From assembly GCA_964510315.1 (NCBI GenBank), contig CAZEAP010000011.1:22985-86984 (forward strand): a DNA stretch of 64,000 nucleotides, given 5' to 3'. The translations under genes and the position numbers were made by a program. The notes under the pieces were generated by a model, which saw only the letters and a list, made by a program, of their open reading frames with translations, made no database searches and was not told where the DNA came from. Origin of the DNA: an uncultured candidatus Brocadiaceae bacterium (GTDB lineage: Bacteria > Planctomycetota > Brocadiia > SM23-32). Below, in pieces: positions 2,148 through 64,000 of this stretch. How positions within the stretch are numbered: the first letter of the stretch is position 1; every line of letters begins with the position of its first letter.

Positions 2148-2545
2148 GCGCCGGAGTTCCCAAACCGCCGGTCTGCTGCAAATGCGCCGCTCGCGGGCAG
2201 GGCTGTCACGCTAAACGCATACGGGGGCGTCAGACCGAGAAGACAAGCACACGACCGTATTGCGTGCCGGGAACCGAAAGCTACTTCTGAGTCATCCCCA
2301 GTTTGTCCCGACCAAACTGGCTGCGTGCCCGGGCCCGGCTGAGAAACAGGGCGTCCCTGGAAGCTTATGCGCCGTCGGGGGGGCGTCGGCGTCCCAGCTC
2401 CATCCAGAGCCCACCGGCGACGGGGTTAAGCAGTTTGAGGTAAATGCGTTCCAGTTGCCAAACGCTACCTCGCGGGGATGCTTCCCCTCATCGGGTAGGT
2501 CCGGCGTCCCCGCCGTTGCGCCGCGGAGCGGCGCGGTCATGAAGG

Positions 2546-2812
2546 CCAGGGCTTCAGCCCTGGTGCTTCACGGCAAAAACCCAATTGCGCCCCGGAGGGG
2601 CGCGGTGAGGCATGCGATGCGCAAAAGCCTGACCAACCTGCTGTATCACATCATGTTCGCAACAGGAGAGCAACGACGCGCTCTCACGCCGCGGCATCGC
2701 ATTCGTTGAGCGCGACCTGCGGCGCTGACCCGACCGCGCCCCTCCGGGGCGCACAATTAGCTTACATGCGCCGGCAACCGGGGCTAAAGCCCCGGCCTCC
2801 ATCACATGGCCC
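2546..2812. repeat. Cluster of GC-rich REP-like hairpins: hairpin ccagggcttcagccctgg at 2546-2563; perfect 20-nt inverted repeat gcgccccggaggggcgcggt (2587-2606) / accgcgcccctccggggcgc (2733-2752); ~37-nt core aaccggggctaaagccccggcctccatcacatggccc at 2776-2812
   Basis: Read directly from the sequence. The 2776-2812 core recurs in inverted orientation at 58569-58605 with one mismatch in the loop. The region has no credible long ORF. Confidence 0.7.
2617..2709 (+). pseudogene. Possible decayed remnant of a Y1 (IS200/RAYT-like) transposase N-terminus lying between the inverted hairpins
   Basis: The translation ...MRKSLTNLLYHIMFATGEQRRAL... loosely resembles the conserved (G)ALYHV(M/T)xRGNxRQxIF start of PF01797-type transposases. 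It is only ~30 aa long and is flanked by the REP-like palindromes. Weak call. Confidence 0.2.
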
Positions 2813-3119
2813 CTGCGGGGCCGGCGCATTCCCGGAACCGTTGCCCGCAAACCGTGCCAGCAGACGGGCCAGGTGCGTTGAACCGAACGAAGAGATTCTT
2901 CGCTCGCTGAAAGGTGCGCTCGCTCAGAAAGATATCCTGGGCGGCAGCCCCGGGACTCAGGGAGCGCAAGAAAGAAACGCCGCCGTGAAGGGGCGGCATG
3001 GACGCTGACGGCATACGGCCATCCCGGTCCGGCTCTGAGGGGGTCTTTTTGCGACCGGCCGGAGAAATGCTCCCCAAAACCGGGGATGACTCAAAAGCTA
3101 CTTGTCTTGACGCGCATAG

Positions 3120-5044: not shown

Positions 5045-6070
5045 ATGAGCGATGAGCCGACCGACGTCTGCGTCTACGCCGAGACGGTCGAGGGAGCCGT
5101 CGCCGAGGTCAGCCTGGAGCTGACCCACAAGGCACGTGAACTGGCCGCCGAGCTGGGCGGCGAGGTCGGCGCGTTTCTTCTCGGCGACTCCGTCTCCCAT
5201 CTGGCGGAAGACCTCTTCGCGCACGGCGCCGACGAGGTGGTGGTCGCGGAACACCCCGAACTCGGCAACTATCGCACGCTCCCTTACGCGGACATGCTCT
5301 CGAAGATGATACGCGCCAACGAGCCGGCCGTGGTGCTTTTCGGGGCCACTACGACCGGCCGCGACCTGGCCCCTCGCGTCGCCTCCATCCTGAAGGTCGG
5401 CCTCACGGCCGACTGCACCGACCTGAAGATCGGACCCCACAAGGACCTGGTGAAGGGCAAGGAGTATCCCCGGCTTCTCTACCAGATACGGCCCGCCTTC
5501 GGGGGCAACATCATCGCCACCATCGTCAACCCGGAGACCAGGCCCCAGATGGCCACCGTCCGGGAGGGCGTGATGAAGATGGGCGCCCCCGATCCGGATC
5601 GGGAAGGCCGCCTGACCCGGTTCGACGGCTCTCCCGATGAAGCCCTGCTCGCCGTCGAGGTGCTGGAGGAATTCCGGGCGGAGCGGACCGTGGACCTGAA
5701 GAAAGCCAACGTCATCGTCAGCGGCGGGGCCGGGGTGGGCAGCGAGGAGAACTTCGAGCTGATCCGACGGCTGGCCGATACGCTGGGCGGTCAGGTAGGC
5801 GCCTCCCGGGCCGCCGTGGACGCCGGCTTCATCGGCAAAGAGCACCAGGTCGGCCAGACCGGCACCACCGTCCGGCCGAAGCTCTACGTGGCCTGCGGAA
5901 TCAGCGGAGCGGTCCAGCACCGGGCCGGCATGCAGGAATCCAGCGAAATCGTGGCCATCAACACCGACCCCGACGCGCCCATATTCGACGTTGCCCACTA
6001 CGGCATCGTGGGGGACCTGAACGAAGTCATCCCAATTCTAATCGACGCCTACAAGGAACACGCCAGGTGA
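5045..6070 (+). CDS. etfA: Electron transfer flavoprotein alpha subunit
   Basis: 341 aa. The C-terminal FAD-binding region reads VIVSGGAGVGSEENFELIRRLADTLGGQVGASRAAVDAGF...QVGQTGTTVRPKLYVACGISGAVQH, typical of EtfA. Confidence 0.9.
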   Translation: MSDEPTDVCVYAETVEGAVAEVSLELTHKARELAAELGGEVGAFLLGDSVSHLAEDLFAHGADEVVVAEHPELGNYRTLPYADMLSKMIRANEPAVVLFGATTTGRDLAPRVASILKVGLTADCTDLKIGPHKDLVKGKEYPRLLYQIRPAFGGNIIATIVNPETRPQMATVREGVMKMGAPDPDREGRLTRFDGSPDEALLAVEVLEEFRAERTVDLKKANVIVSGGAGVGSEENFELIRRLADTLGGQVGASRAAVDAGFIGKEHQVGQTGTTVRPKLYVACGISGAVQHRAGMQESSEIVAINTDPDAPIFDVAHYGIVGDLNEVIPILIDAYKEHAR

Positions 6071-6086
6071 GAAAGCGGAACTGAAC

Positions 6087-7820
6087 ATGCCCAATTTCTT
6101 CACCGACAACGAAGACATCGTTGATTTTCTCGACCACACCGACCTCCGCCGGTTGGTGAGGCTCCAGGAGCGGAACTACGCCGAAGCGGACAGCTTCGGG
6201 TACGCCCCGGCCGATTACGCGGACGCCCTCGACAACTACCGGCGGGTCCTGGAGATGGTCGGGGAGCTGTCCGCCGAGTTCATCGCCCCCCGCGCCGAAG
6301 AGGTGGACGAGGAAGGCCCTCACCTGAGCGACGGGGAGGTCACTTACGCCCGGGGCACGCGTGAAGCGCTGGAGCAGCTCCGCAAAGCCGACCTGATGGG
6401 CTTTACCCTCCCCCGCCGTTACGGGGGCCTCAACATGCCGGTGCTCATCTACACCATCGCCATCGAACTGGTCAGCCGGGCCGACGCCAGCCTCATGAAC
6501 CTGTTCGGCCTCCAGGACATCGCCGAGACCATCAACAACTTCAGCGAGGAGGAGGTGAAGGAGGCCTACCTCCCCCGCTTCAGCAGCGGCGAGGTGACCG
6601 GCGCGATGGCCCTGACCGAGCCGGACGCGGGCAGCGACCTGACCAACGTGCAGGTGCGGGCCACGAAGGACTCCGACGACGGCCCATGGCGCCTCAACGG
6701 AGTCAAGCGGTTCATCACCAACGGCTGCGCCGAGGTGCTGCTGGTGCTGGCCCGCAGCGAACCCGAAACCAAGGGCGCCCGTGGGCTCTCCCTGTTTCTC
6801 TGCGAGTCGGGCACGGAAGTAAGGGTGCGGCGGATCGAGGAGAAGCTGGGCATCCACGGTTCCCCCACCTGCGAGCTGCAGTTCGTGAGCGCCCCCGCCC
6901 TGCTGATCGGCCGTCGCAAGCGCGGCCTCAGCACCTACGTGATGTCGCTGATGAACGGCGCCCGACTGGCCATCGCCGCCCAGGGCGTGGGCATCGCGCA
7001 GGCCGCCCTCAGTGAGGCACTCGACTACGCGGCGGAGCGGGAGCAATTCGGCCGGCCCATCCGGCAGTTCCCGGCGGTGCGCCGCATGCTGGGCGAGATG
7101 CACATGAAGGTGGAAACCTCCCGACTGCTCACCTACCAGACCGCCGTCGCCGTCGACATGGCCGACAACATCGACCACCTCCGCTCCAGCGGGGAACTGG
7201 AAGAACTGCCCGGAGGGGAGGAGCTGGCCGGGCAGCGGCGCTACTGGACTCAACTGGCCCGCTCCCTGACCCCCATCGCGAAGTATTACGCCACCGAAAT
7301 GTGCAATGAAGTCACCTACGACGCCCTCCAGGTGCTCGCCGGCAGCGGGTACATGCGGGACTACGAGGTGGAGCGGCTCTACCGCGACGCTCGCATCACC
7401 ACCATCTACGAGGGAACTACCCAGATCCAGCACAACGCCGCCATCGGCTACGTCATGAGGGGCACCCTGGAGGAAAGGTGTGCCGAGCTGCACGAGCAAC
7501 TGGCCGAGGCCGGTGGCGACCCCGGCATGCTGGAGGCGCTGGCGGACGCACGCCGCCGGCTGGCCGAAGCAATAGAATACACCCGGGAGCAGGAAGACGA
7601 TTTCAGGGACCTCCACGCCGGCGGCCTCGTCGAGGCGGCAACCACCATCTACAACGGATACCTCCTGCTGGAGCCCGCCGGGCGCTCGGAGCACAAAAAG
7701 GCGCTGGCTGAAGGCTACTTCGACGAATACCTCCCCAGGGTCAAGCTAAGATGCGACCAGATACTCAGCGGAAACCGCACCTACCTGGACCGCACGTCCG
7801 AACTGCTGGACTATGAATGA
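6087..7820 (+). CDS. Acyl-CoA dehydrogenase, long form with a C-terminal extension, partner of EtfAB
   Basis: 577 aa with ACAD motifs (GAMALTEPDAGSD; YDALQVLAGSGYMRDYEVERLYRDARITTIYEGTTQIQ). It lies immediately downstream of etfBA. Confidence 0.85.
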   Translation: MPNFFTDNEDIVDFLDHTDLRRLVRLQERNYAEADSFGYAPADYADALDNYRRVLEMVGELSAEFIAPRAEEVDEEGPHLSDGEVTYARGTREALEQLRKADLMGFTLPRRYGGLNMPVLIYTIAIELVSRADASLMNLFGLQDIAETINNFSEEEVKEAYLPRFSSGEVTGAMALTEPDAGSDLTNVQVRATKDSDDGPWRLNGVKRFITNGCAEVLLVLARSEPETKGARGLSLFLCESGTEVRVRRIEEKLGIHGSPTCELQFVSAPALLIGRRKRGLSTYVMSLMNGARLAIAAQGVGIAQAALSEALDYAAEREQFGRPIRQFPAVRRMLGEMHMKVETSRLLTYQTAVAVDMADNIDHLRSSGELEELPGGEELAGQRRYWTQLARSLTPIAKYYATEMCNEVTYDALQVLAGSGYMRDYEVERLYRDARITTIYEGTTQIQHNAAIGYVMRGTLEERCAELHEQLAEAGGDPGMLEALADARRRLAEAIEYTREQEDDFRDLHAGGLVEAATTIYNGYLLLEPAGRSEHKKALAEGYFDEYLPRVKLRCDQILSGNRTYLDRTSELLDYE

Positions 7821-58383: not shown

Positions 58384-58760
58384 GCCTTTCTGATGATCGC
58401 CGTCAGGATGCCGATCAACTGATCCGCTTCGTCGAGTATCCGTTTGGCGTCCTGCCGGAGCGCTGCCGATCTATTGCGTCCGGCTGTCTCTGCCGGCCAT
58501 AATCTCGGCAGCCACGGGGTTCCCAAATGCCCGCAAGCCCGCCGCCCGGAACCTGGGCGGCCCCCCGGGGGCCATGTGATGGAGGCCGGGGCTTCAGCCC
58601 CGGTTTGCGGCTAAACATGTAATTCGTTGATCGGCCCGTCTGCGGCAGCGCCTTCCGCTTCGCCGGAGGCTTCGAGAAGCCTGAGCCAATACAGCGTCTC
58701 CCCGGCCTCCCTGCGGGGGATGGCATACTTAGCGATGAAGTCCGCGCGGCTCTGGGCGCT
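58384..58760 (-). pseudogene. Four-helix-bundle (23S rRNA IVS-type) protein gene remnant, split by the REP-like element
   Basis: Fragment 1 (58611-58745) translates ...ADFIAKYAIPRREAGETLYWLRLLEASG...; fragment 2 (58384-58480) translates ...RQDAKRILDEADQLIGILTAIIRKAVQRS*. Both resemble the C-terminal helices of four-helix-bundle proteins. The intervening 58480-58610 holds the ccggggcttcagccccgg core repeat. No intact N-terminus. Confidence 0.4.
58569..58605. repeat. Inverted copy of the ~37-nt REP-like core found at 2776-2812
   Basis: gggccatgtgatggaggccggggcttcagccccggtt is the reverse complement of aaccggggct(a>g)aagccccggcctccatcacatggccc, with one mismatch. Confidence 0.8.
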
Positions 58761-59117
58761 TACTGGGCGGGTTCCGGCGCACTGAAGACGCGGAGTGTTG
58801 CTAAAGCCAGAACCGTTACGACAGAAGCACCAGCGGCGAAAGTGCCTTCGCCGTGGCAAGAGAGCGTGTAGCCTCCGGCCCCGTAAGCGAGGAGGGCGAA
58901 GAGACCGGGCAGCAAAACCCACCGACCCCGGAATTCGAGCTTCCATCCTGCGAAACGGGACATCCTTTGTGTCCTCCCTTGCTAATGTGAACGACTCCGC
59001 CGGGTGCGCCGAGCGCCTTCAAAACCTGAGAAGCCCACCTGCTTGTCCACGACGCATCCACCAAACACCTCGCGGATTCTGCGCCTCCCGCGCACCTGCC
59101 GGGTAGAGGCACCGCAT

Positions 59118-59612
59118 TCAGGCATTGTGAGGGTCCTGTGCCCTCTCAAAGACAACCCGCGCGAGTGCGTAGTACAGGGTATAAACAGCCAGGATGGCCA
59201 GAGGCAACCACCATTGCTTCAGTATGCCGAGAGCGAAAAGCGCCAGCGATTCTGACGCAATGATCAGGACATCGCTGAGGACTACTCCTGCACACTCGTC
59301 CGCCGGGATGAGCCGAAACCCCAGACGAAGTGAGTTGAGGAGAGCGTAAAGGAAGGCAGCAAAAAGCGGGACTTGAATCACGAGCCCCGATGCAGGATGC
59401 CAAGCGCTAAGTGCCAGAAGCGCGACGGCCACCAGCGCCCATCCTGCCGCCTCAGGACACCACCGAATTACCATGCGACTCACTTGACCACAGTGGGGGC
59501 AACGCACGTCAGCGGGCAGTAGGAAGCGTGTATTAGCACGGGAGGCAAGACCGGGCGCCCCGGGGAAATCATGGTGACAGTTAGGACACTTCCAGGTCGG
59601 TAGAAATCTCAT
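59118..59612 (-). CDS. Zinc-ribbon membrane protein (N-terminal CxxC...CxxC plus 3-4 TM helices); candidate Rhs-CT immunity protein
   Basis: MRFLPTWKCPNCHHDF...VRCPHCGQV, then hydrophobic helices. Lower local GC. 130 nt downstream of the Rhs fragment. Confidence 0.55.
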   Translation of the reverse strand: MRFLPTWKCPNCHHDFPGAPGLASRANTRFLLPADVRCPHCGQVSRMVIRWCPEAAGWALVAVALLALSAWHPASGLVIQVPLFAAFLYALLNSLRLGFRLIPADECAGVVLSDVLIIASESLALFALGILKQWWLPLAILAVYTLYYALARVVFERAQDPHNA

Positions 59613-59741
59613 CGCTGTCTCACCCAGCCGGAGTCCAATTCCTCCACATGTACGGTCACTCGACAGGCTCGTCGTGCAAGACCGTATGACACGCCACAAT
59701 ACAGGCGACTTCGCAGCAAATCCCGGGCTCGGGCGCGCAGA

Positions 59742-60509
59742 TTATGAGACAAGCTGCGTGGCAACCAATAATCTTCGCAATGTCCGCCAGCTTGCTGTCA
59801 GAAAAGTGGACAGCCGAGATCCCACCAGAACGCCTGAAGGGCACGCAGGAACCACCCGTGCACCCAGGGGCACTTCCCGCCCCGTACGCTCCACACTGGC
59901 ACTGCTGGGCCGCATCCAAAGCCAGGCAGCAGCCGCTGTAACACTCCTTCGCCGGAGCACCCGCTCGCAGGCAGTGGGTGAAGCACAGATCCCAGAGTTC
60001 GTCGATAGAAAGGATAACCCTACCACGTGACCCTGATCGTCCCGATCGAGTGTCCTCAATCCCGTCGGGTCGGTAGAGCTACTCGGCGAGTTGAGGACGT
60101 AAGCGTAGGGGTTGTGCCAGCTATGGTAGCCGCTCGGGTCGCGTTGCAGGAAGCGGCCGAGGTCGGGGGCGTATTCGCGGTGGCGGAATTGCATCACTCC
60201 CGCCGCCACTTCCAGCCGGCGGGACTGGAAGAGGTACGGGTTCTCTACATCCGAGAGGCCGTCCGTATCCTCCGTGCCATCGGCGTCCAGGACGGTGGTC
60301 TCGCCATAGGCGGTGTGGCGATACCGCTCCACGACCGACTCATCTGTATTTGAAAGAGCGAAGATGCTGTAGATGGTGCTCGAGTGATAATACACCACCT
60401 CGCCGGCGTCGGCAAAGTCACCGTCCGTGTTGAGGTCTCTCTCCTGACGGGCCGGACTGTCTGCTGCTATCCTTTCTGCCAGCTGGTAGCTACAAAATGA
60501 TTGCCACAT
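59742..60509 (-). pseudogene. Orphan Rhs C-terminal cassette #2 (RHS core tip ending DPTGL plus variable C-terminal region); probably frameshifted
   Basis: ...YRHTAYGETTVLDADG...QFRHREYAPDLGRFLQRDPSGYHSWHNPYAYVLNSPSSSTDPTGL is the Rhs core terminus. No upstream YD-repeat shell. The cysteine-rich tail continues in another frame (ORF 59656..59919). Confidence 0.6.
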
Positions 60510-60679
60510 ACTTCACAATGCCATCTGAGGGGAATGACATCCGCGGCAAACACCAGCGCCACGCAGACCGCTACGGTCAGCCGAACGAGGTTCGCCGGAT
60601 CCTTATCGAGTCTGGTCCCAGACGACGCGCCACAAAACTTGCACAATGGCCGCTTTAAACGCACCATATTGATTACCAT
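60467..60679 (-). CDS. Small zinc-ribbon membrane protein (CKFCG...TM...CEVCG), candidate immunity protein for Rhs cassette #1
   Basis: 70 aa with two CxxC pairs flanking a hydrophobic helix LVRLTVAVCVALVFAADVIPL. Starts 7 nt before the Rhs#1 stop. Low-GC segment. Confidence 0.45.
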   Translation of the reverse strand: MVINMVRLKRPLCKFCGASSGTRLDKDPANLVRLTVAVCVALVFAADVIPLRWHCEVCGNHFVATSWQKG

Positions 60680-61809
60680 CCTAAGTCATCGCACCCGATA
60701 TAATCGCGCGCCCATTGTACGGGATCACCTAAACCGAAGGTGCAGATTTTGCATATGGCATTAGTTCCCCAGGATTCCCTCAGTTGCATACACACACACC
60801 GTGTGTAATCCTCACCGTCGTTGTAGATTGCACAGGTAGCGACCTGGATATTCAAGGCTGCGATACAGGCGCCACAGCGACACACAGCCAGGAACCCCCC
60901 CGTCTTGAGGAACTTGCCCCAAGGGATCTTTGTGCCTGCCGACAGCAACTTAAGGGCGGCAGGGGCCCCCGGGAACAACTTAAGCAACGGACCGCCAAAG
61001 GACAGCCCGCAGAAGCCACCTCGGCACGGGCCAGGACCTCCGCCACCCCTACCTGAACCACCACCGCCGCCATCCCGTCCGCAGTTACATTGTGGAGCCG
61101 TCGGCATAGCGGTGCAGCAGGCTTCGTAGCAGTACTCGGAACCGCCTTCTCCCTCTTTGGAGCAATGAGTGTAACAAAGATTCCAGAGTTCCCCAATACT
61201 TAAAATCAAGTAGTGGCCTTCCCAGCGTGCCAATCCCATCGGATCTGTCGCCGATGTGGGGCGCTGGGTGACATAGCCGTAGAGGTTGGACCCATCCTGG
61301 TAGCCGCTCGGGTCGCGGGAGACGAAACGACCGTGGGCCGCGTCGTAGTAGCGGTTCCTGTACTGCATGAGGCCGGAGGCCGAGTCCAGCCTGCGGGCGG
61401 TGAAGGTGTGCGGGTTGTGCACGTCGCTCAGGCCGTCCGTATCCTCCGTGCCATCGGCATCGAGGACGGTCGCGGCTCCATAGGCGTCGTAGCGGTAACG
61501 TTCCACGACGGACTCCGAGGAATCCGAGAGTGCACAGACGGAATAGATTATATTGCTATGATACCATACCACCTCGTCGGAATCGCCGAAATCCCCGTCC
61601 GCGTTCAGGTCGCGTTGCTGTCTGGCCACGGCGTCTACGTAGCCCGGGGCGTAGGTGTAGCGAGCGATGAGATTCCCTGAGCCGTCCTGCTCCTCGAGGG
61701 CCTGCCATTCGGAGGTCCCGCCCCACAGGAACCGCGTGGTGCCGTTGACGCGCCCTACCCAACTCCGAGCGTTCCGGCATTCTCGGTTCCGCCCTTCAGT
61801 CGGTAACAA
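60673..61809 (-). CDS. Orphan Rhs C-terminal cassette #1: RHS repeats plus core tip (DPMGL) plus a ~175-aa cysteine-rich C-terminal (putative toxin) domain
   Basis: ...RYRYDAYGAATVLDADG...QYRNRYYDAAHGRFVSRDPSGYQDGSNLYGYVTQRPTSATDPMGL, then a divergent Cys-rich tail. About 110 aa are near-identical to cassette #2. The 5' end overlaps the HEAT-repeat gene, so there is no N-terminal Rhs shell. Confidence 0.7.
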   Translation of the reverse strand: MLPTEGRNRECRNARSWVGRVNGTTRFLWGGTSEWQALEEQDGSGNLIARYTYAPGYVDAVARQQRDLNADGDFGDSDEVVWYHSNIIYSVCALSDSSESVVERYRYDAYGAATVLDADGTEDTDGLSDVHNPHTFTARRLDSASGLMQYRNRYYDAAHGRFVSRDPSGYQDGSNLYGYVTQRPTSATDPMGLARWEGHYLILSIGELWNLCYTHCSKEGEGGSEYCYEACCTAMPTAPQCNCGRDGGGGGSGRGGGGPGPCRGGFCGLSFGGPLLKLFPGAPAALKLLSAGTKIPWGKFLKTGGFLAVCRCGACIAALNIQVATCAIYNDGEDYTRCVCMQLRESWGTNAICKICTFGLGDPVQWARDYIGCDDLGW

Positions 61810-63343
61810 TCGCGTCCAGCGCCCGCTCGGCCGCTTCCACCACCAGCAACCGGACCGAGGTCAGCTCGAAGTCAGATGGCGGGGTCTCCTGGCCGTACAG
61901 TCCGCGCAGCCGCTCCAGGTCCCAGAAACTGGCGGAGGCAGCCGGCCCGATTTTCTCGAGCGCATTGGCCGCGTTCACAACCAGCTCATACTTCTCCGAA
62001 CGGAGCAGCGGCACGAGGGCGGGCACGGCCTCGGCCGCAGGTGGCCCGATCTTTCGCAAAGCGAACATCGCTGCGGATTTCACGACGTCTTTCTTGTCCT
62101 TCAGCTTGGACACCAGAATGGGTAGGACCCGTTCAGGGGGCAGCCCGGGCATAGCCAGGGAGCCTACAGCGGCCGCGCGTACCGTCGGATCGGGATCTTC
62201 CGAGAATCTGAGAAGCACCTCCAGGGCTTCCATCTGCTGTGTCTCGGCCTTCAGTAAAGCGTGAAGGCCGGCAATACGCAGGTCCCTGTCGGCGGCCGAG
62301 GCGGCTTTCCTGAATACTTCAACAACTTCGGGTCTCTCTCCGCCGAGCCGTGCGAGGGAGTAAACGACCGGCTCGCGCAGCTCCGCCCCCGACACTTCAT
62401 AAAGAGAGAGCAGGATGGGCACGACAGCGTCCATCTCCCGGCGCAGCCAGCCAAGCGCTACGATTGCCTCTCGGCGGCACATCTTGTCCAGCCCCTCGTC
62501 CTCGGCCAGCTCCCTTAATCTCGCTACTCCTTCCTTGCCTGTCGCCCCGCTCGCCTTTACGGCCTTGGCGGCCTGCGAAAGCCACTCGGGCTCAGCTTCC
62601 CGCAACGCTTCCTCTACTGGGTTCTCGGCTGCCGGTCCGACCCACGCAAATAGTTCCCAAATCTCAACCACGGCTATCAGGTCCCAGTCGTGCCGCGCCA
62701 CCTCCAGCCGGCGCACCAAAGGCTTCAGGTGCCCGTCGGTCCTGCCGGCCAGCTTTGCAATCGCCGCGCATGCGGTCAATCGAACCTGCAAGTCTTCGGC
62801 TTTGGAGAACTTGCGGATAAGCGGCACCGCACTCTGGGCATCCAGGTCGCCCAGAGCCAGGATCAATTCCTTCTGCAGTTGGGGCTCTTCGGCTTGCTCC
62901 AGCGCGCGCGACAGAGCACGGGCAATGTCGCCAGCATCGGAACCGCCCCGGCCGATCAGTCTGAGCGCATGCACCATTTCCGTTGCGACCAACCAGTCTT
63001 GTTCATTCGCAATTGCACAAGCCAGCCCCCCCCGCATGGCCTCATGAGTGACGCTCCAATGAGCCAACTGGTCCAGCCGGCGGGCCGCTTCCTTGCGCAC
63101 CTCCGTAGCGGGGTCCCTGAGCAACTCGAGCAGTTTGGGTATTGCGCGCTCGCCTCTTCGGGCCAAAAACATGCGGATGGCGTCTCTCCTCAAGCCCGGA
63201 TCATCTGAGCCCAACCACTGCCGGCAAAGCCAGGCGTCCGAGCCCTCAGGTCGCGGATGCTCAGTATCTGCTTCCAGCGGATCCACAGGGACCAGAACAA
63301 ACAAGACCACAATGGCCAACGACAGCACCCATCTGCTTGTCAT
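61796..63343 (-). CDS. Secreted HEAT-repeat protein (PBS-lyase HEAT-like repeats)
   Basis: The ATG at 63343 (MTSRWVLSLAIVVLFVLVPVDPLEA signal peptide) has gggag upstream. Repeated LLRDPATEVRKEAARRL / DLQVRLTACAAIAKL / DPTVRAAAVGSL units. Confidence 0.7.
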   Translation of the reverse strand: MTSRWVLSLAIVVLFVLVPVDPLEADTEHPRPEGSDAWLCRQWLGSDDPGLRRDAIRMFLARRGERAIPKLLELLRDPATEVRKEAARRLDQLAHWSVTHEAMRGGLACAIANEQDWLVATEMVHALRLIGRGGSDAGDIARALSRALEQAEEPQLQKELILALGDLDAQSAVPLIRKFSKAEDLQVRLTACAAIAKLAGRTDGHLKPLVRRLEVARHDWDLIAVVEIWELFAWVGPAAENPVEEALREAEPEWLSQAAKAVKASGATGKEGVARLRELAEDEGLDKMCRREAIVALGWLRREMDAVVPILLSLYEVSGAELREPVVYSLARLGGERPEVVEVFRKAASAADRDLRIAGLHALLKAETQQMEALEVLLRFSEDPDPTVRAAAVGSLAMPGLPPERVLPILVSKLKDKKDVVKSAAMFALRKIGPPAAEAVPALVPLLRSEKYELVVNAANALEKIGPAASASFWDLERLRGLYGQETPPSDFELTSVRLLVVEAAERALDAIVTD

Positions 63344-63576
63344 CTCGCTTTCTCCCAGCGTTGGAGCTGAATTATCCCGTCTTTGCGCGACTGCTGCGAG
63401 CGCGAGAAAGACCTGCCGGAAATCCTGGAGTCCATCTGGCCTGCTCGTTCCGCAACGCTCTCCTCCAGCACTGCTACGCAGCATCCAACGGAACACGCCT
63501 TTGTTGGGGAGTAGTAAGCAGACCAGCTCTGCGCCCACAACCAGTGGCCTTCGGCCTCCTTCTTAATAACTCATGC

Positions 63577-64000
63577 CTATTTCCCCCTGGCGTTCAGGCC
63601 GCGACATTTCTCCGTACAGCCTCTTCTGACCGACCACGGCAAAGCCTTCTGGGTGTTAGTAGGAGAGATTCTGGTGAACATGTGCGGGTTATGCTTGCGC
63701 AGTTTAGCACCCCAGCCCTTACCCCAGGGGTACACGCCCTTTTCGGAGTCGAAACCAGACACTTTTTGCGTCCACCACCAGGGACTTGTGACCAACCAAT
63801 CATTTACCCAGTACTTTTCCCCCGTGTCGCTCCTCCAATGTTGGGCGGTTACAAACCGGTGGGCGGCCATGACGTCTTTCATGGGCCCAGGGATGGCAAG
63901 CCAGTCAGCACCCGACACTACTCGCGCCACCCACTCCCCATGCTTTATCAGCTGGAAGGAAGTAGCCCAAACTTCTGGCCCCCCGAAACCCTCCCACTTT
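63577..64000 (-). CDS. Hypothetical Trp-rich protein, 5'-truncated by the window edge
   Basis: The minus-strand frame stays open from 63577 to the window end (...KWEGFGGPEVWATSFQLIKHGEW-ARVVSGADWLAIPG...PWWWTQKVSGFDSEKGVYPWGKGWG...). No family recognised. Confidence 0.4.
   Translation of the reverse strand, partial: KWEGFGGPEVWATSFQLIKHGEWVARVVSGADWLAIPGPMKDVMAAHRFVTAQHWRSDTGEKYWVNDWLVTSPWWWTQKVSGFDSEKGVYPWGKGWGAKLRKHNPHMFTRISPTNTQKALPWSVRRGCTEKCRGLNARGK

Follow-up and report, generated by a model that had tools for sequence, protein, structure and literature searches.

A probable orphan Rhs toxin array in a Planctomycetota genome with a candidate toxin/immunity pair of unusual immunity architecture

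The closest described systems to the locus reported here are the orphan rhs-CT/rhsI modules of Enterobacteria, in which a full-length rhs gene can exchange its tip (i.e. the variable C-terminal end) by way of core fragments and the immunity genes are a defence against kin (Poole et al. 2011, PMC3150448; Koskiniemi et al. 2014, PMC3967940). Two further points of reference are Tse5-CT of Pseudomonas aeruginosa, an Rhs-delivered depolarising pore former that is neutralised by the membrane protein Tsi5 (PMC9637101, PMC10684867), and the polymorphic-toxin catalogue of 2012, where Imm-CdiI and Imm17 are the only membrane immunity classes given (Zhang et al. 2012, PMC3482391). We analysed 64,000 nucleotides (64 kb; hereafter the window) of contig CAZEAP010000011.1 from a Planctomycetota metagenome-assembled genome (MAG). 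The stretch 59118..64000 of the window is most likely the downstream part of an Rhs polymorphic-toxin array with at least three successive orphan rhs-CT cassettes, and we regard as likely the joint claim that this is an orphan-Rhs array and that its cassette 1 carries a new toxin/immunity pair.

The locus shares with the enterobacterial modules a core fragment that ends in DPxGL, a tip that varies and, behind it, a gene placed where immunity genes sit, and also the tandem arrangement, the missing YD shell and N-terminal region, and the foreign base composition. It differs in that it lies in a Planctomycetota MAG, has no full-length rhs visible upstream, and carries Cys-rich tips and unnamed toxin/immunity families. 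On the minus strand the order is the tip of an Rhs-core gene (P0118), a HEAT-repeat protein, the tip of cassette 1, a gene for a protein of 70 amino acids (aa), the tip of cassette 2 and a gene for a 164-aa protein. Calling of open reading frames (ORFs) returned all five minus-strand ORFs that an earlier inspection of the letters alone (hereafter the sequence-only reading) had listed, each with the same coordinates: ORF A (60673..61809, 378 aa), ORF B (59742..60509, 255 aa), the 70-aa ORF (60467..60679), an 87-aa ORF in a third frame (59656..59919) and the 164-aa ORF, which runs from an ATG at 59612 to 59118 within an open frame that reaches 59699 (193 aa).

The pair in question is encoded by cassette 1 (ORF A, identical to database protein P0001; minus strand), which consists of a 22-aa leader, an Rhs core fragment and a tip. 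The tip opens with a Cys module that is common to cassettes 1 and 2 (61078..61209; LILSIGELWNLCYTHC...CYEACC...QCNCG) and continues through a Gly-rich linker (60937..61077) into a terminal domain of ∼85 aa (60676..60936), a helical, Cys-rich putative toxin. A word-indexed search with the whole 185-aa tip gave no relatives. An exhaustive HMMER search of 1.84 billion representative proteins with a profile of the two tips gave 17 proteins at E<=0.001: one is ORF A, 15 match only the last ∼80–85 aa of cassette 1, and the remaining match, a repetitive 1538-aa protein, is probably spurious. The 15 stand for clusters at 50% identity and have E-values from 1.3e-21 to 3e-4. The Cys module has no relatives beyond this genome among the same representatives. 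In all 15 carriers the terminal domain forms the extreme C-terminus, and the carriers are of several kinds, i.e. short Rhs-core proteins, an Rhs protein of 1070 aa with YD repeats (P0135) and a non-Rhs protein (P0132) with sub-threshold FG-GAP and dockerin matches and a signal-like N-terminus. In the Rhs carriers, including P0135, the domain is placed after DPxGL; P0017, which came from a search with the core, bears it as well. Because the domain is always C-terminal on different delivery scaffolds, we read it as a polymorphic-toxin tip.

In an alignment of 16 sequences six Cys, one Lys and one Ser are invariant, an Arg is nearly so, and a YIGC motif is terminal; three further Cys are common within the ∼85 aa. 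The resulting hidden Markov model (HMM) finds the cassette 1 domain in the window at E=2.6e-39. Searches of Pfam and NCBIfam gave no match for any member, none of the curated Ntox/Tox-* families corresponds to it, and a sequence search of the PDB gave nothing at E<=10. AlphaFold2 with the alignment predicts four helices (residues 9–41, 45–57, 59–68 and 75–83; predicted local distance difference test, pLDDT, 76; predicted template modelling score, pTM, 0.59), of which the first is 33 residues long; the hydrophobic stretch of the toxin has a Kyte–Doolittle (KD) hydropathy of 1.71. Judged from sequence comparison, the last ∼85 aa of cassette 1 appear to belong to a rare, unnamed toxin domain.

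The candidate immunity gene (60467..60679, minus strand) encodes a 70-aa protein with a basic N-terminus, CKFC, a hydrophobic segment of ∼20 residues and HCEVC. Its ATG overlaps the stop codon of the toxin gene (ATGGTAA); the equivalent overlap in L003 is ATGA. The 16-sequence toxin alignment is too divergent for scanning loci and a five-sequence subset was used instead; two loci came from the genome scan, one from the metagenome scan and most from look-ups of exact proteins. The toxin domain is followed, on the same strand and after 0–150 nt, by a homologous small ORF in all ten independent loci, i.e. the window, L001, L002, L003 (=L004), L005, L006, L007, L009, L010 and L011/L012, which derive from Planctomycetota, Verrucomicrobiota and metagenomes. 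The partner ORF is found at ∼9083..9268 of L001 (a 641-kb ENA contig), 5838..6170 of L002 (a Planctomycetales MAG), 698..892 of L003 (=L004; a Verrucomicrobiota MAG) and 1309..1524 of L005 (a metagenome); it follows the full-length Rhs P0135 in L006 (5651..5842) and the non-Rhs P0132 in L007 (1629..1847), and lies at ∼2015..2188 of L009, ∼3534..3716 of L010 and ∼3531..3704 of L011. An HMM built on seven of these loci recovers the partner in the three that had not been used (L009, E=1.3e-18; L010, 4.3e-17; L011/L012, 9.7e-10) and matches nothing else in the 64-kb window or in ∼70 kb of loci. The source (JGI/ENA) gene calls omit the small ORF in L005, L009, L010 and L011.

Aligned, the ten partner proteins have an invariant Pro-x-Cys-x-x-Cys, so that the first CxxC is present in every one, and an invariant Asn that opens a 19-residue hydrophobic stretch (KD 1.4–2.5; the segment of the protein encoded here reaches 2.36) with an Asp or Glu near its end in nine of the ten. 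The second knuckle is complete in eight and lacks one Cys in the other two, and in most members the sequence on either side of the hydrophobic segment carries a net positive charge. The family is without a match among the Imm models of Pfam. Imm-CdiI and Imm17 are likewise small, hydrophobic immunity proteins encoded directly after a toxin tip; they have two transmembrane helices and lack Cys knuckles, whereas the family described here has a single hydrophobic segment between CxxC pairs. None of the catalogued immunity classes has a zinc knuckle that is split by a hydrophobic segment. The toxin/immunity reading is strong for cassette 1 because of the linkage in all ten loci, the start/stop overlap and the conserved features of the partner, and we consider it very probable that the toxin domain and the 70-aa protein form such a pair. 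The sequence-only reading had placed a small CxxC ORF in the immunity position of cassette 1, and comparison across loci supports it: the Rhs core is recognised, the C-terminal domain is conserved and so is its CxxC neighbour. As far as sequence comparison goes, toxin domain and partner appear to be absent from Pfam, NCBIfam and the PDB, rare, and spread across at least two phyla; the array itself is ordinary.

The assignment of ORFs A and B to the Rhs family was made with the NCBIfam model TIGR03696 (Rhs_assc_core; curated cutoff 32.5 bits), which matches ORF A with 65.6 bits (aa 107–193) and ORF B with 63.2 bits (aa 66–151). Both contain the core motif RYR[YH]xAYG...GRF..RDPSGY...DP[MT]GL, with DPMGL in ORF A and DPTGL in ORF B as the boundary before the variable tip. 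No Pfam match to PF05593 RHS_repeat or to TEN_YD-shell occurs in either ORF, and matches to NF041261 (RHS_core) are confined to the last ∼65 positions of the model. A full-length Rhs protein would have many PF05593 repeats, a region for trafficking at its N-terminus and ∼1000 aa or more; these ORFs have only 378 and 255 aa. Given the TIGR03696 match and the missing RHS_repeat/YD-shell match, ORFs A and B are shell-less C-terminal ends of Rhs proteins, as the sequence-only reading had held. That reading had also called the core stretch near-identical in the two cassettes, which the alignment contradicts: the core fragment of cassette 1 (61231..61743, minus strand; the last degenerate YD repeats and the RHS-associated core ending in DPMGL) and that of cassette 2 (60057..60470, minus strand; within ORF B, =P0084, and directly after the stop of the 70-aa gene) have 60% protein identity over 151 aa, and 69% (blastn, 358 nt) to ∼74% (MAFFT) identity at the DNA level. 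The last YD repeats of both contain an acidic insert, RDLN(A/T)DGDF(G/A)D(S/A)(D/G)E (∼61570..61610, aa ∼66–80, in ORF A; 60400..60440 in ORF B). It is kept across this planctomycete Rhs clade and resembles a calcium-binding loop.

A search with ORF A gave 217 relatives from MAGs of Planctomycetota or 'Ca. Brocadiia' type and from metagenomes, all of which align to its N-terminal 59% or less, i.e. the core. Among them are three proteins from the same 104,424-bp NCBI contig (P0001, P0084 and P0118). Homology to longer Rhs proteins, e.g. P0002 (...KAVTNKGDLNGTTRFLWGG...), starts at NGTTRF (∼61745), and the 22-aa leader before it is unrelated to them; an unrelated leader followed by homology from this point is the structure of a displaced orphan. 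An unrelated metagenomic protein, P0010, loses homology to longer Rhs proteins at the same point as ORF A (…LNGTTRFLWGG), which hints at a recurrent cassette boundary or recombination breakpoint. Each cassette keeps 110–190 aa of the core, DPxGL included, and continues into its own variable tip, behind which a gene occupies the immunity position. By analogy with studied orphan modules, the core fragments would act as homology arms for recombination with a full-length rhs, and the immunity genes would protect the cell from kin that deploy the same tips. The reservoir role is proposed by analogy only, since no full-length rhs is in view here or upstream in L001.

Alternatively, the short genes of Rhs core plus tip could be self-standing units, either type II toxin–antitoxin-like inside the producer or expressed or exported alone. 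This would agree with the length of most of the 217 homologues (only 210–615 aa), with the first L001 cassette, which has no full-length rhs upstream, with the intact ORF A and 70-aa gene, which overlap as if translationally coupled, and with a report of Salmonella orphan RHS elements as type II toxin–antitoxin modules (PMC7043789). However, many of the homologues in the databases stem from short contigs and could be incomplete, the leader of ORF A is non-homologous and its only start is a TTG, and a common 5′ breakpoint together with tandem repetition of the core is the product of successive displacement. We judge self-standing units unlikely and favour displaced orphan cassettes.

Base composition sets the island apart. 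The five lowest 300-nt windows in guanine + cytosine (GC) content of the whole 64 kb fall at 60.45–60.95 kb (0.523–0.533), which bears out the local drop seen in the sequence-only reading; the mean of such windows is 0.653 (standard deviation 0.039) and the island overall has 0.596. At third codon positions (GC3) the island genes have 0.59–0.72, versus 0.84–0.86 in the adjacent thioredoxin-like and epimerase genes. Together with the core matches and the missing shell, these values support the earlier description of the region as an island of foreign composition with orphan Rhs C-terminal cassettes in tandem. A rival reading is that the whole island is non-functional debris, i.e. pseudogenised Rhs fragments and chance small ORFs: the tips have low, weakly periodic GC3, cassette 2 has a frameshift and a neighbour that lacks relatives beyond the same population, and no full-length rhs is in view. 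Yet cassette 1 is intact, as is its 70-aa partner, and both fall into families that are conserved across phyla with invariant residues, and a chance ORF would not recur beside the same domain in ten of ten loci. We consider debris very improbable.

How the pair might work is a more tentative matter. No enzymatic family or fold matches the toxin, and we propose that it would be non-enzymatic and that its target would be the cytoplasmic membrane. The long hydrophobic first helix, with the invariant Lys and near-invariant Arg, may insert into the membrane and depolarise or permeabilise it. The immunity protein would be a membrane-anchored split zinc knuckle, and its hydrophobic segment, with the conserved Asn and the Asp/Glu, could bind and block the toxin helix within the membrane. 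We infer membrane action because the toxin is small, helical and without an enzyme match, because its first helix is hydrophobic and its partner predicted to be membrane-embedded, and because Tse5-CT/Tsi5 provides a precedent; even so, we put this mechanism forward with less than even confidence. The likeness to Tse5-CT/Tsi5 is a functional analogy only: in both, an Rhs tip that is small, helical and non-enzymatic, and whose helices are predicted to insert into membranes, is paired with a small integral membrane immunity protein. Tsi5 differs in having two predicted transmembrane helices and no zinc knuckles, and the toxin here is Cys-rich, with one borderline hydrophobic helix and a presumed activity.

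The main alternative to the membrane mechanism is a disulfide-locked extracellular effector. The toxin would then act outside the cytoplasm, either as a soluble effector rich in disulfides or as an enzyme or inhibitor that binds metal, and its single-pass partner would block uptake or reduce the disulfides through its CxxC motifs. Six invariant and three common Cys in ∼85 aa are consistent with this, as are the CxxC motifs on either side of the hydrophobic segment, the presence of the domain on the secreted FG-GAP/dockerin scaffold P0132 with its signal-like N-terminus, and the proposal of Zhang et al. that membrane immunity proteins may prevent uptake. Against it, no thioredoxin-like or enzyme match was found, one Cys of the second knuckle is missing in two of the ten immunity proteins, and the net positive charge of both flanks in most members fits a cytoplasmic location of the two. 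An effector of this kind seems to us unlikely, and membrane action is the reading that we prefer.

Several observations weigh against our account as a whole. The first group concerns the orphan array: there is no full-length rhs within the window, which ends inside the upstream P0118 (itself 338 aa), nor upstream of the cassettes in the related locus L001, and the sole start of ORF A is a TTG (61809). The second concerns the pair and its mechanism: (i) the toxin family is small, so that ten loci are few, though they are spread across phyla; (ii) the hydrophobic helix of the toxin is only borderline as a transmembrane segment; (iii) the six invariant Cys fit a disulfide-locked soluble extracellular domain or a metal site equally well; and (iv) an immunity protein that was monotopic at the cytoplasmic face might not readily meet a toxin that arrives from outside.

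The predicted architecture of the partner recalls LITAF, a eukaryotic, zinc-bound monotopic membrane anchor (PMC5095921, PMC5142333); the LITAF/CDIP1 domain is also the receptor of the bacterial pore-forming toxin Hbl. The order of elements is of the LITAF type, i.e. CxxC, ∼20–22 hydrophobic residues and (H)xCxxC (HCEVC in the protein encoded here), and zf-LITAF-like (PF10601; gathering score 23.8 bits) is the top Pfam match of the 70-aa protein, at a sub-threshold 16.1 bits (E=0.013). Weak matches to this model occur in three of seven members (best E=0.0017). None of three further members matches it, and the consensus sequence scores 13.9 bits, with generic zinc ribbons scoring higher. A PDB sequence search with the 70-aa protein gave generic zinc-finger knuckles only, and a single-sequence AF2 (AlphaFold2) model of it is uninformative (pLDDT 50.6). 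Membership of the LITAF family was rejected as a claim since all member scores are sub-threshold, and for this reason we treat LITAF as an architectural analogue. The two have in common a split zinc-knuckle arrangement in a protein of ∼70 residues; the present proteins are unlike LITAF/SIMPLE-like proteins in being bacterial, in their toxin-immunity context, in their sub-threshold scores and in the degenerate second knuckle of two members.

It is nevertheless possible, though doubtful, that the 70-aa protein is a true homologue of LITAF/SIMPLE, i.e. a bacterial monotopic zinc-binding membrane protein. The order of elements, the top Pfam rank, the weak matches in three of seven members and the basic flanks on both sides speak for homology; the scores, at 16.1 bits or less against 23.8, and the preference of the three further members and of the consensus for generic zinc ribbons speak against it. 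Bolder still, and in our view improbable, is the scenario in which the 70-aa proteins are true LITAF-fold hairpins, zinc-bound and monotopic, that originally captured small membrane-inserting toxins within the bilayer, the eukaryotic LITAF/CDIP1 domain is derived from such a bacterial toxin-immunity module or convergent with it, and the toxin represents a new membrane-depolarising class with delivery by Rhs and Sec routes. If the likeness did reflect homology, it would give the eukaryotic domain a bacterial conflict-system context.

We then turn to cassette 2, which is most likely a decaying copy. Its tip (59656..60054, minus strand) lies in the −1 frame relative to the core and comprises the shared Cys module and a Cys-rich hydrophobic tail. 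Three-frame translation gives VILSIDELWDLCFTHCLRAGAPAKECYSGCCLALDAAQQCQCG in this frame straight after DPTGL, and VILSIDELWDLCFTHCLRAGAPAKECYSGCCLALDAAQQCQCG aligns with LILSIGELWNLCYTHCSKEGEGGSEYCYEACCTAMPTAPQCNCG of cassette 1. Both tips open with a homologous Cys-rich module of ∼45 aa (ILSIxELWxLCxTHC...CY..CC.A...QCxCG) and diverge after it. The C-terminal domains of the two cassettes, described as different in the sequence-only reading, are therefore so only beyond the ∼45-aa module that directly follows DPxGL. The frame break (∼60030–60060) coincides with a 17-nt indel relative to cassette 1, and an independent Logan assembly (L008, run SRR7048227) is 100% identical over 59050..60177, frame-break site included. 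It follows that the frameshift is not an artefact of one assembler, even if the underlying reads may be the same, and the continuation of the Cys-rich tail in another frame, noticed earlier from the letters alone, recurs unchanged in L008. Programmed frameshifting was considered and rejected: no slippery run occurs at 60030–60060, and since the frame change falls at the 17-nt indel, mutation is the likelier cause. Position 1 of L008 corresponds to ∼60177 of the window, i.e. the Logan contig ends inside the repeated Rhs core. The core repeats thus break short-read assemblies at this site, and the exact order of the cassettes in the MAG calls for caution.

The terminal part of cassette 2 gave no match to the toxin-domain HMM and no relatives among the 1.84 billion representatives or in the other loci. 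The idea that it is a truncated copy of the cassette 1 toxin was dropped, as the apparent match of ICCEVACIVACH with VCRCGACIAALN is unsupported by the HMM. We read cassette 2 as decayed because it is frameshifted and its terminal segment has no toxin-HMM match.

The 164-aa ORF (59118..59612, minus strand) occupies the immunity position of cassette 2 and encodes a CxxC-x24-CxxC ribbon at the N-terminus and, after it, about four hydrophobic segments, which fall within residues 52–95 and 101–155. Only sub-threshold zinc-ribbon matches were obtained in Pfam and NCBIfam. Its sole relative in 5.8 billion proteins is P0136, a 99%-identical fragment from the same population, and none was found in the other loci. 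As a candidate member of the 70-aa family it was rejected (HMM E=1, through the knuckles only; E=0.036 to L001). Two CxxC pairs with hydrophobic segments are thus present in both small ORFs, as the sequence-only reading had seen, and its suggestion of a single membrane immunity family does not hold, the architectures being different. By its position and sequence, the 164-aa protein may or may not be the immunity protein of cassette 2.

Upstream of cassette 1 lies the 3′ part of a third gene with an Rhs core and a toxin-like tip (63577..64000, minus strand), which continues past the end of the window and corresponds to P0118, whose C-terminus is the translation of the window ORF 63577..63930. 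P0118 starts with MYYHSSTIYSIFALSN..VVERYRHTAYG, a core nearly the same as that of cassette 2. The P0118 tip shows partial homology to the tip of P0002 and has no Pfam match, neither to Tox-REase-7 nor to Ntox34. The HEAT-repeat protein (61796..63538, minus strand; probable start ATG at 63343) is encoded directly downstream of P0118, whose stop is at 63577. It matches PF13646 (HEAT_2, E=1.9e-33) in seven stretches, has an N-terminal hydrophobic anchor (KD 2.36) and is intermediate in GC3 (0.72). Imm-HEAT is a described polymorphic-toxin immunity class that has been reported in planctomycetes and verrucomicrobia (Zhang et al. 2012, PMC3482391). Because this class is described and the gene directly follows P0118, we consider it a likelier immunity gene than an invaded unrelated one, and at this one locus it is probably a candidate Imm-HEAT immunity gene of the P0118 cassette. 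It agrees with that class in being a HEAT-repeat protein encoded directly after an Rhs tip and departs from it in the N-terminal anchor and in the P0118 tip, which is neither Tox-REase-7 nor Ntox34. Cassette 1 had been thought to start inside the end of an unrelated HEAT gene: the overlap is real, as the HEAT stop codon (61796–61798) lies 11 nt inside the TTG-initiated frame of ORF A (61809), and it is the word unrelated that needs revision.

At its edge the island is flanked (58558..58946, minus strand) by a 54-nt repeated element and a fragment that resembles a four-helix bundle or 23S intervening sequence (IVS) protein. The element (58558..58611) recurs inverted at 2770..2823 (91% identity, blastn) and also at 2536..2564, and is possibly a REP-like (repetitive extragenic palindromic) intergenic repeat of this genome. 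The adjoining ORF (58611..58946, minus strand) has a partial TIGR02436 match of 21.9 bits, below the cutoff of 24, and is probably a gene fragment at the island edge. Both lend some support to the flanking repeat and pseudogene of the sequence-only reading. A phage origin was rejected, the toxin domain and the P0118 tip both being absent from viral contigs.

Some related loci show arrangements of their own. L001 (8001..10488) contains tandem orphan cassettes with a second core fragment and another Cys-rich tip, in L002 a new Rhs fragment begins right behind the immunity gene (5838..6494), and in L010 (4087..6019) IS66 transposase genes lie beside the toxin/immunity pair. Unusually Cys-rich tips without a known family also occur on the same planctomycete Rhs core clade in P0004, P0005 and L001 (10099..10488), which suggests that toxin tips rich in Cys, and possibly extracytoplasmic, are a habit of the whole lineage.

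In brief, orphan Rhs arrays are textbook material, and the value of this locus lies in a cleanly defined, previously unnamed candidate toxin/immunity pair, well supported and with an unusual immunity architecture, that adds no new principle. The putative toxin is a rare domain that several kinds of delivery scaffold carry in Planctomycetota, Verrucomicrobiota and uncultured bacteria. Its partner, a predicted zinc-knuckle membrane protein of 60–70 aa, is overlooked by gene callers in at least four of ten loci, an instance of the under-annotation of small immunity genes in metagenomes. Membrane-embedded immunity proteins are few and poorly understood, and this pair is small enough for direct experimental tests.

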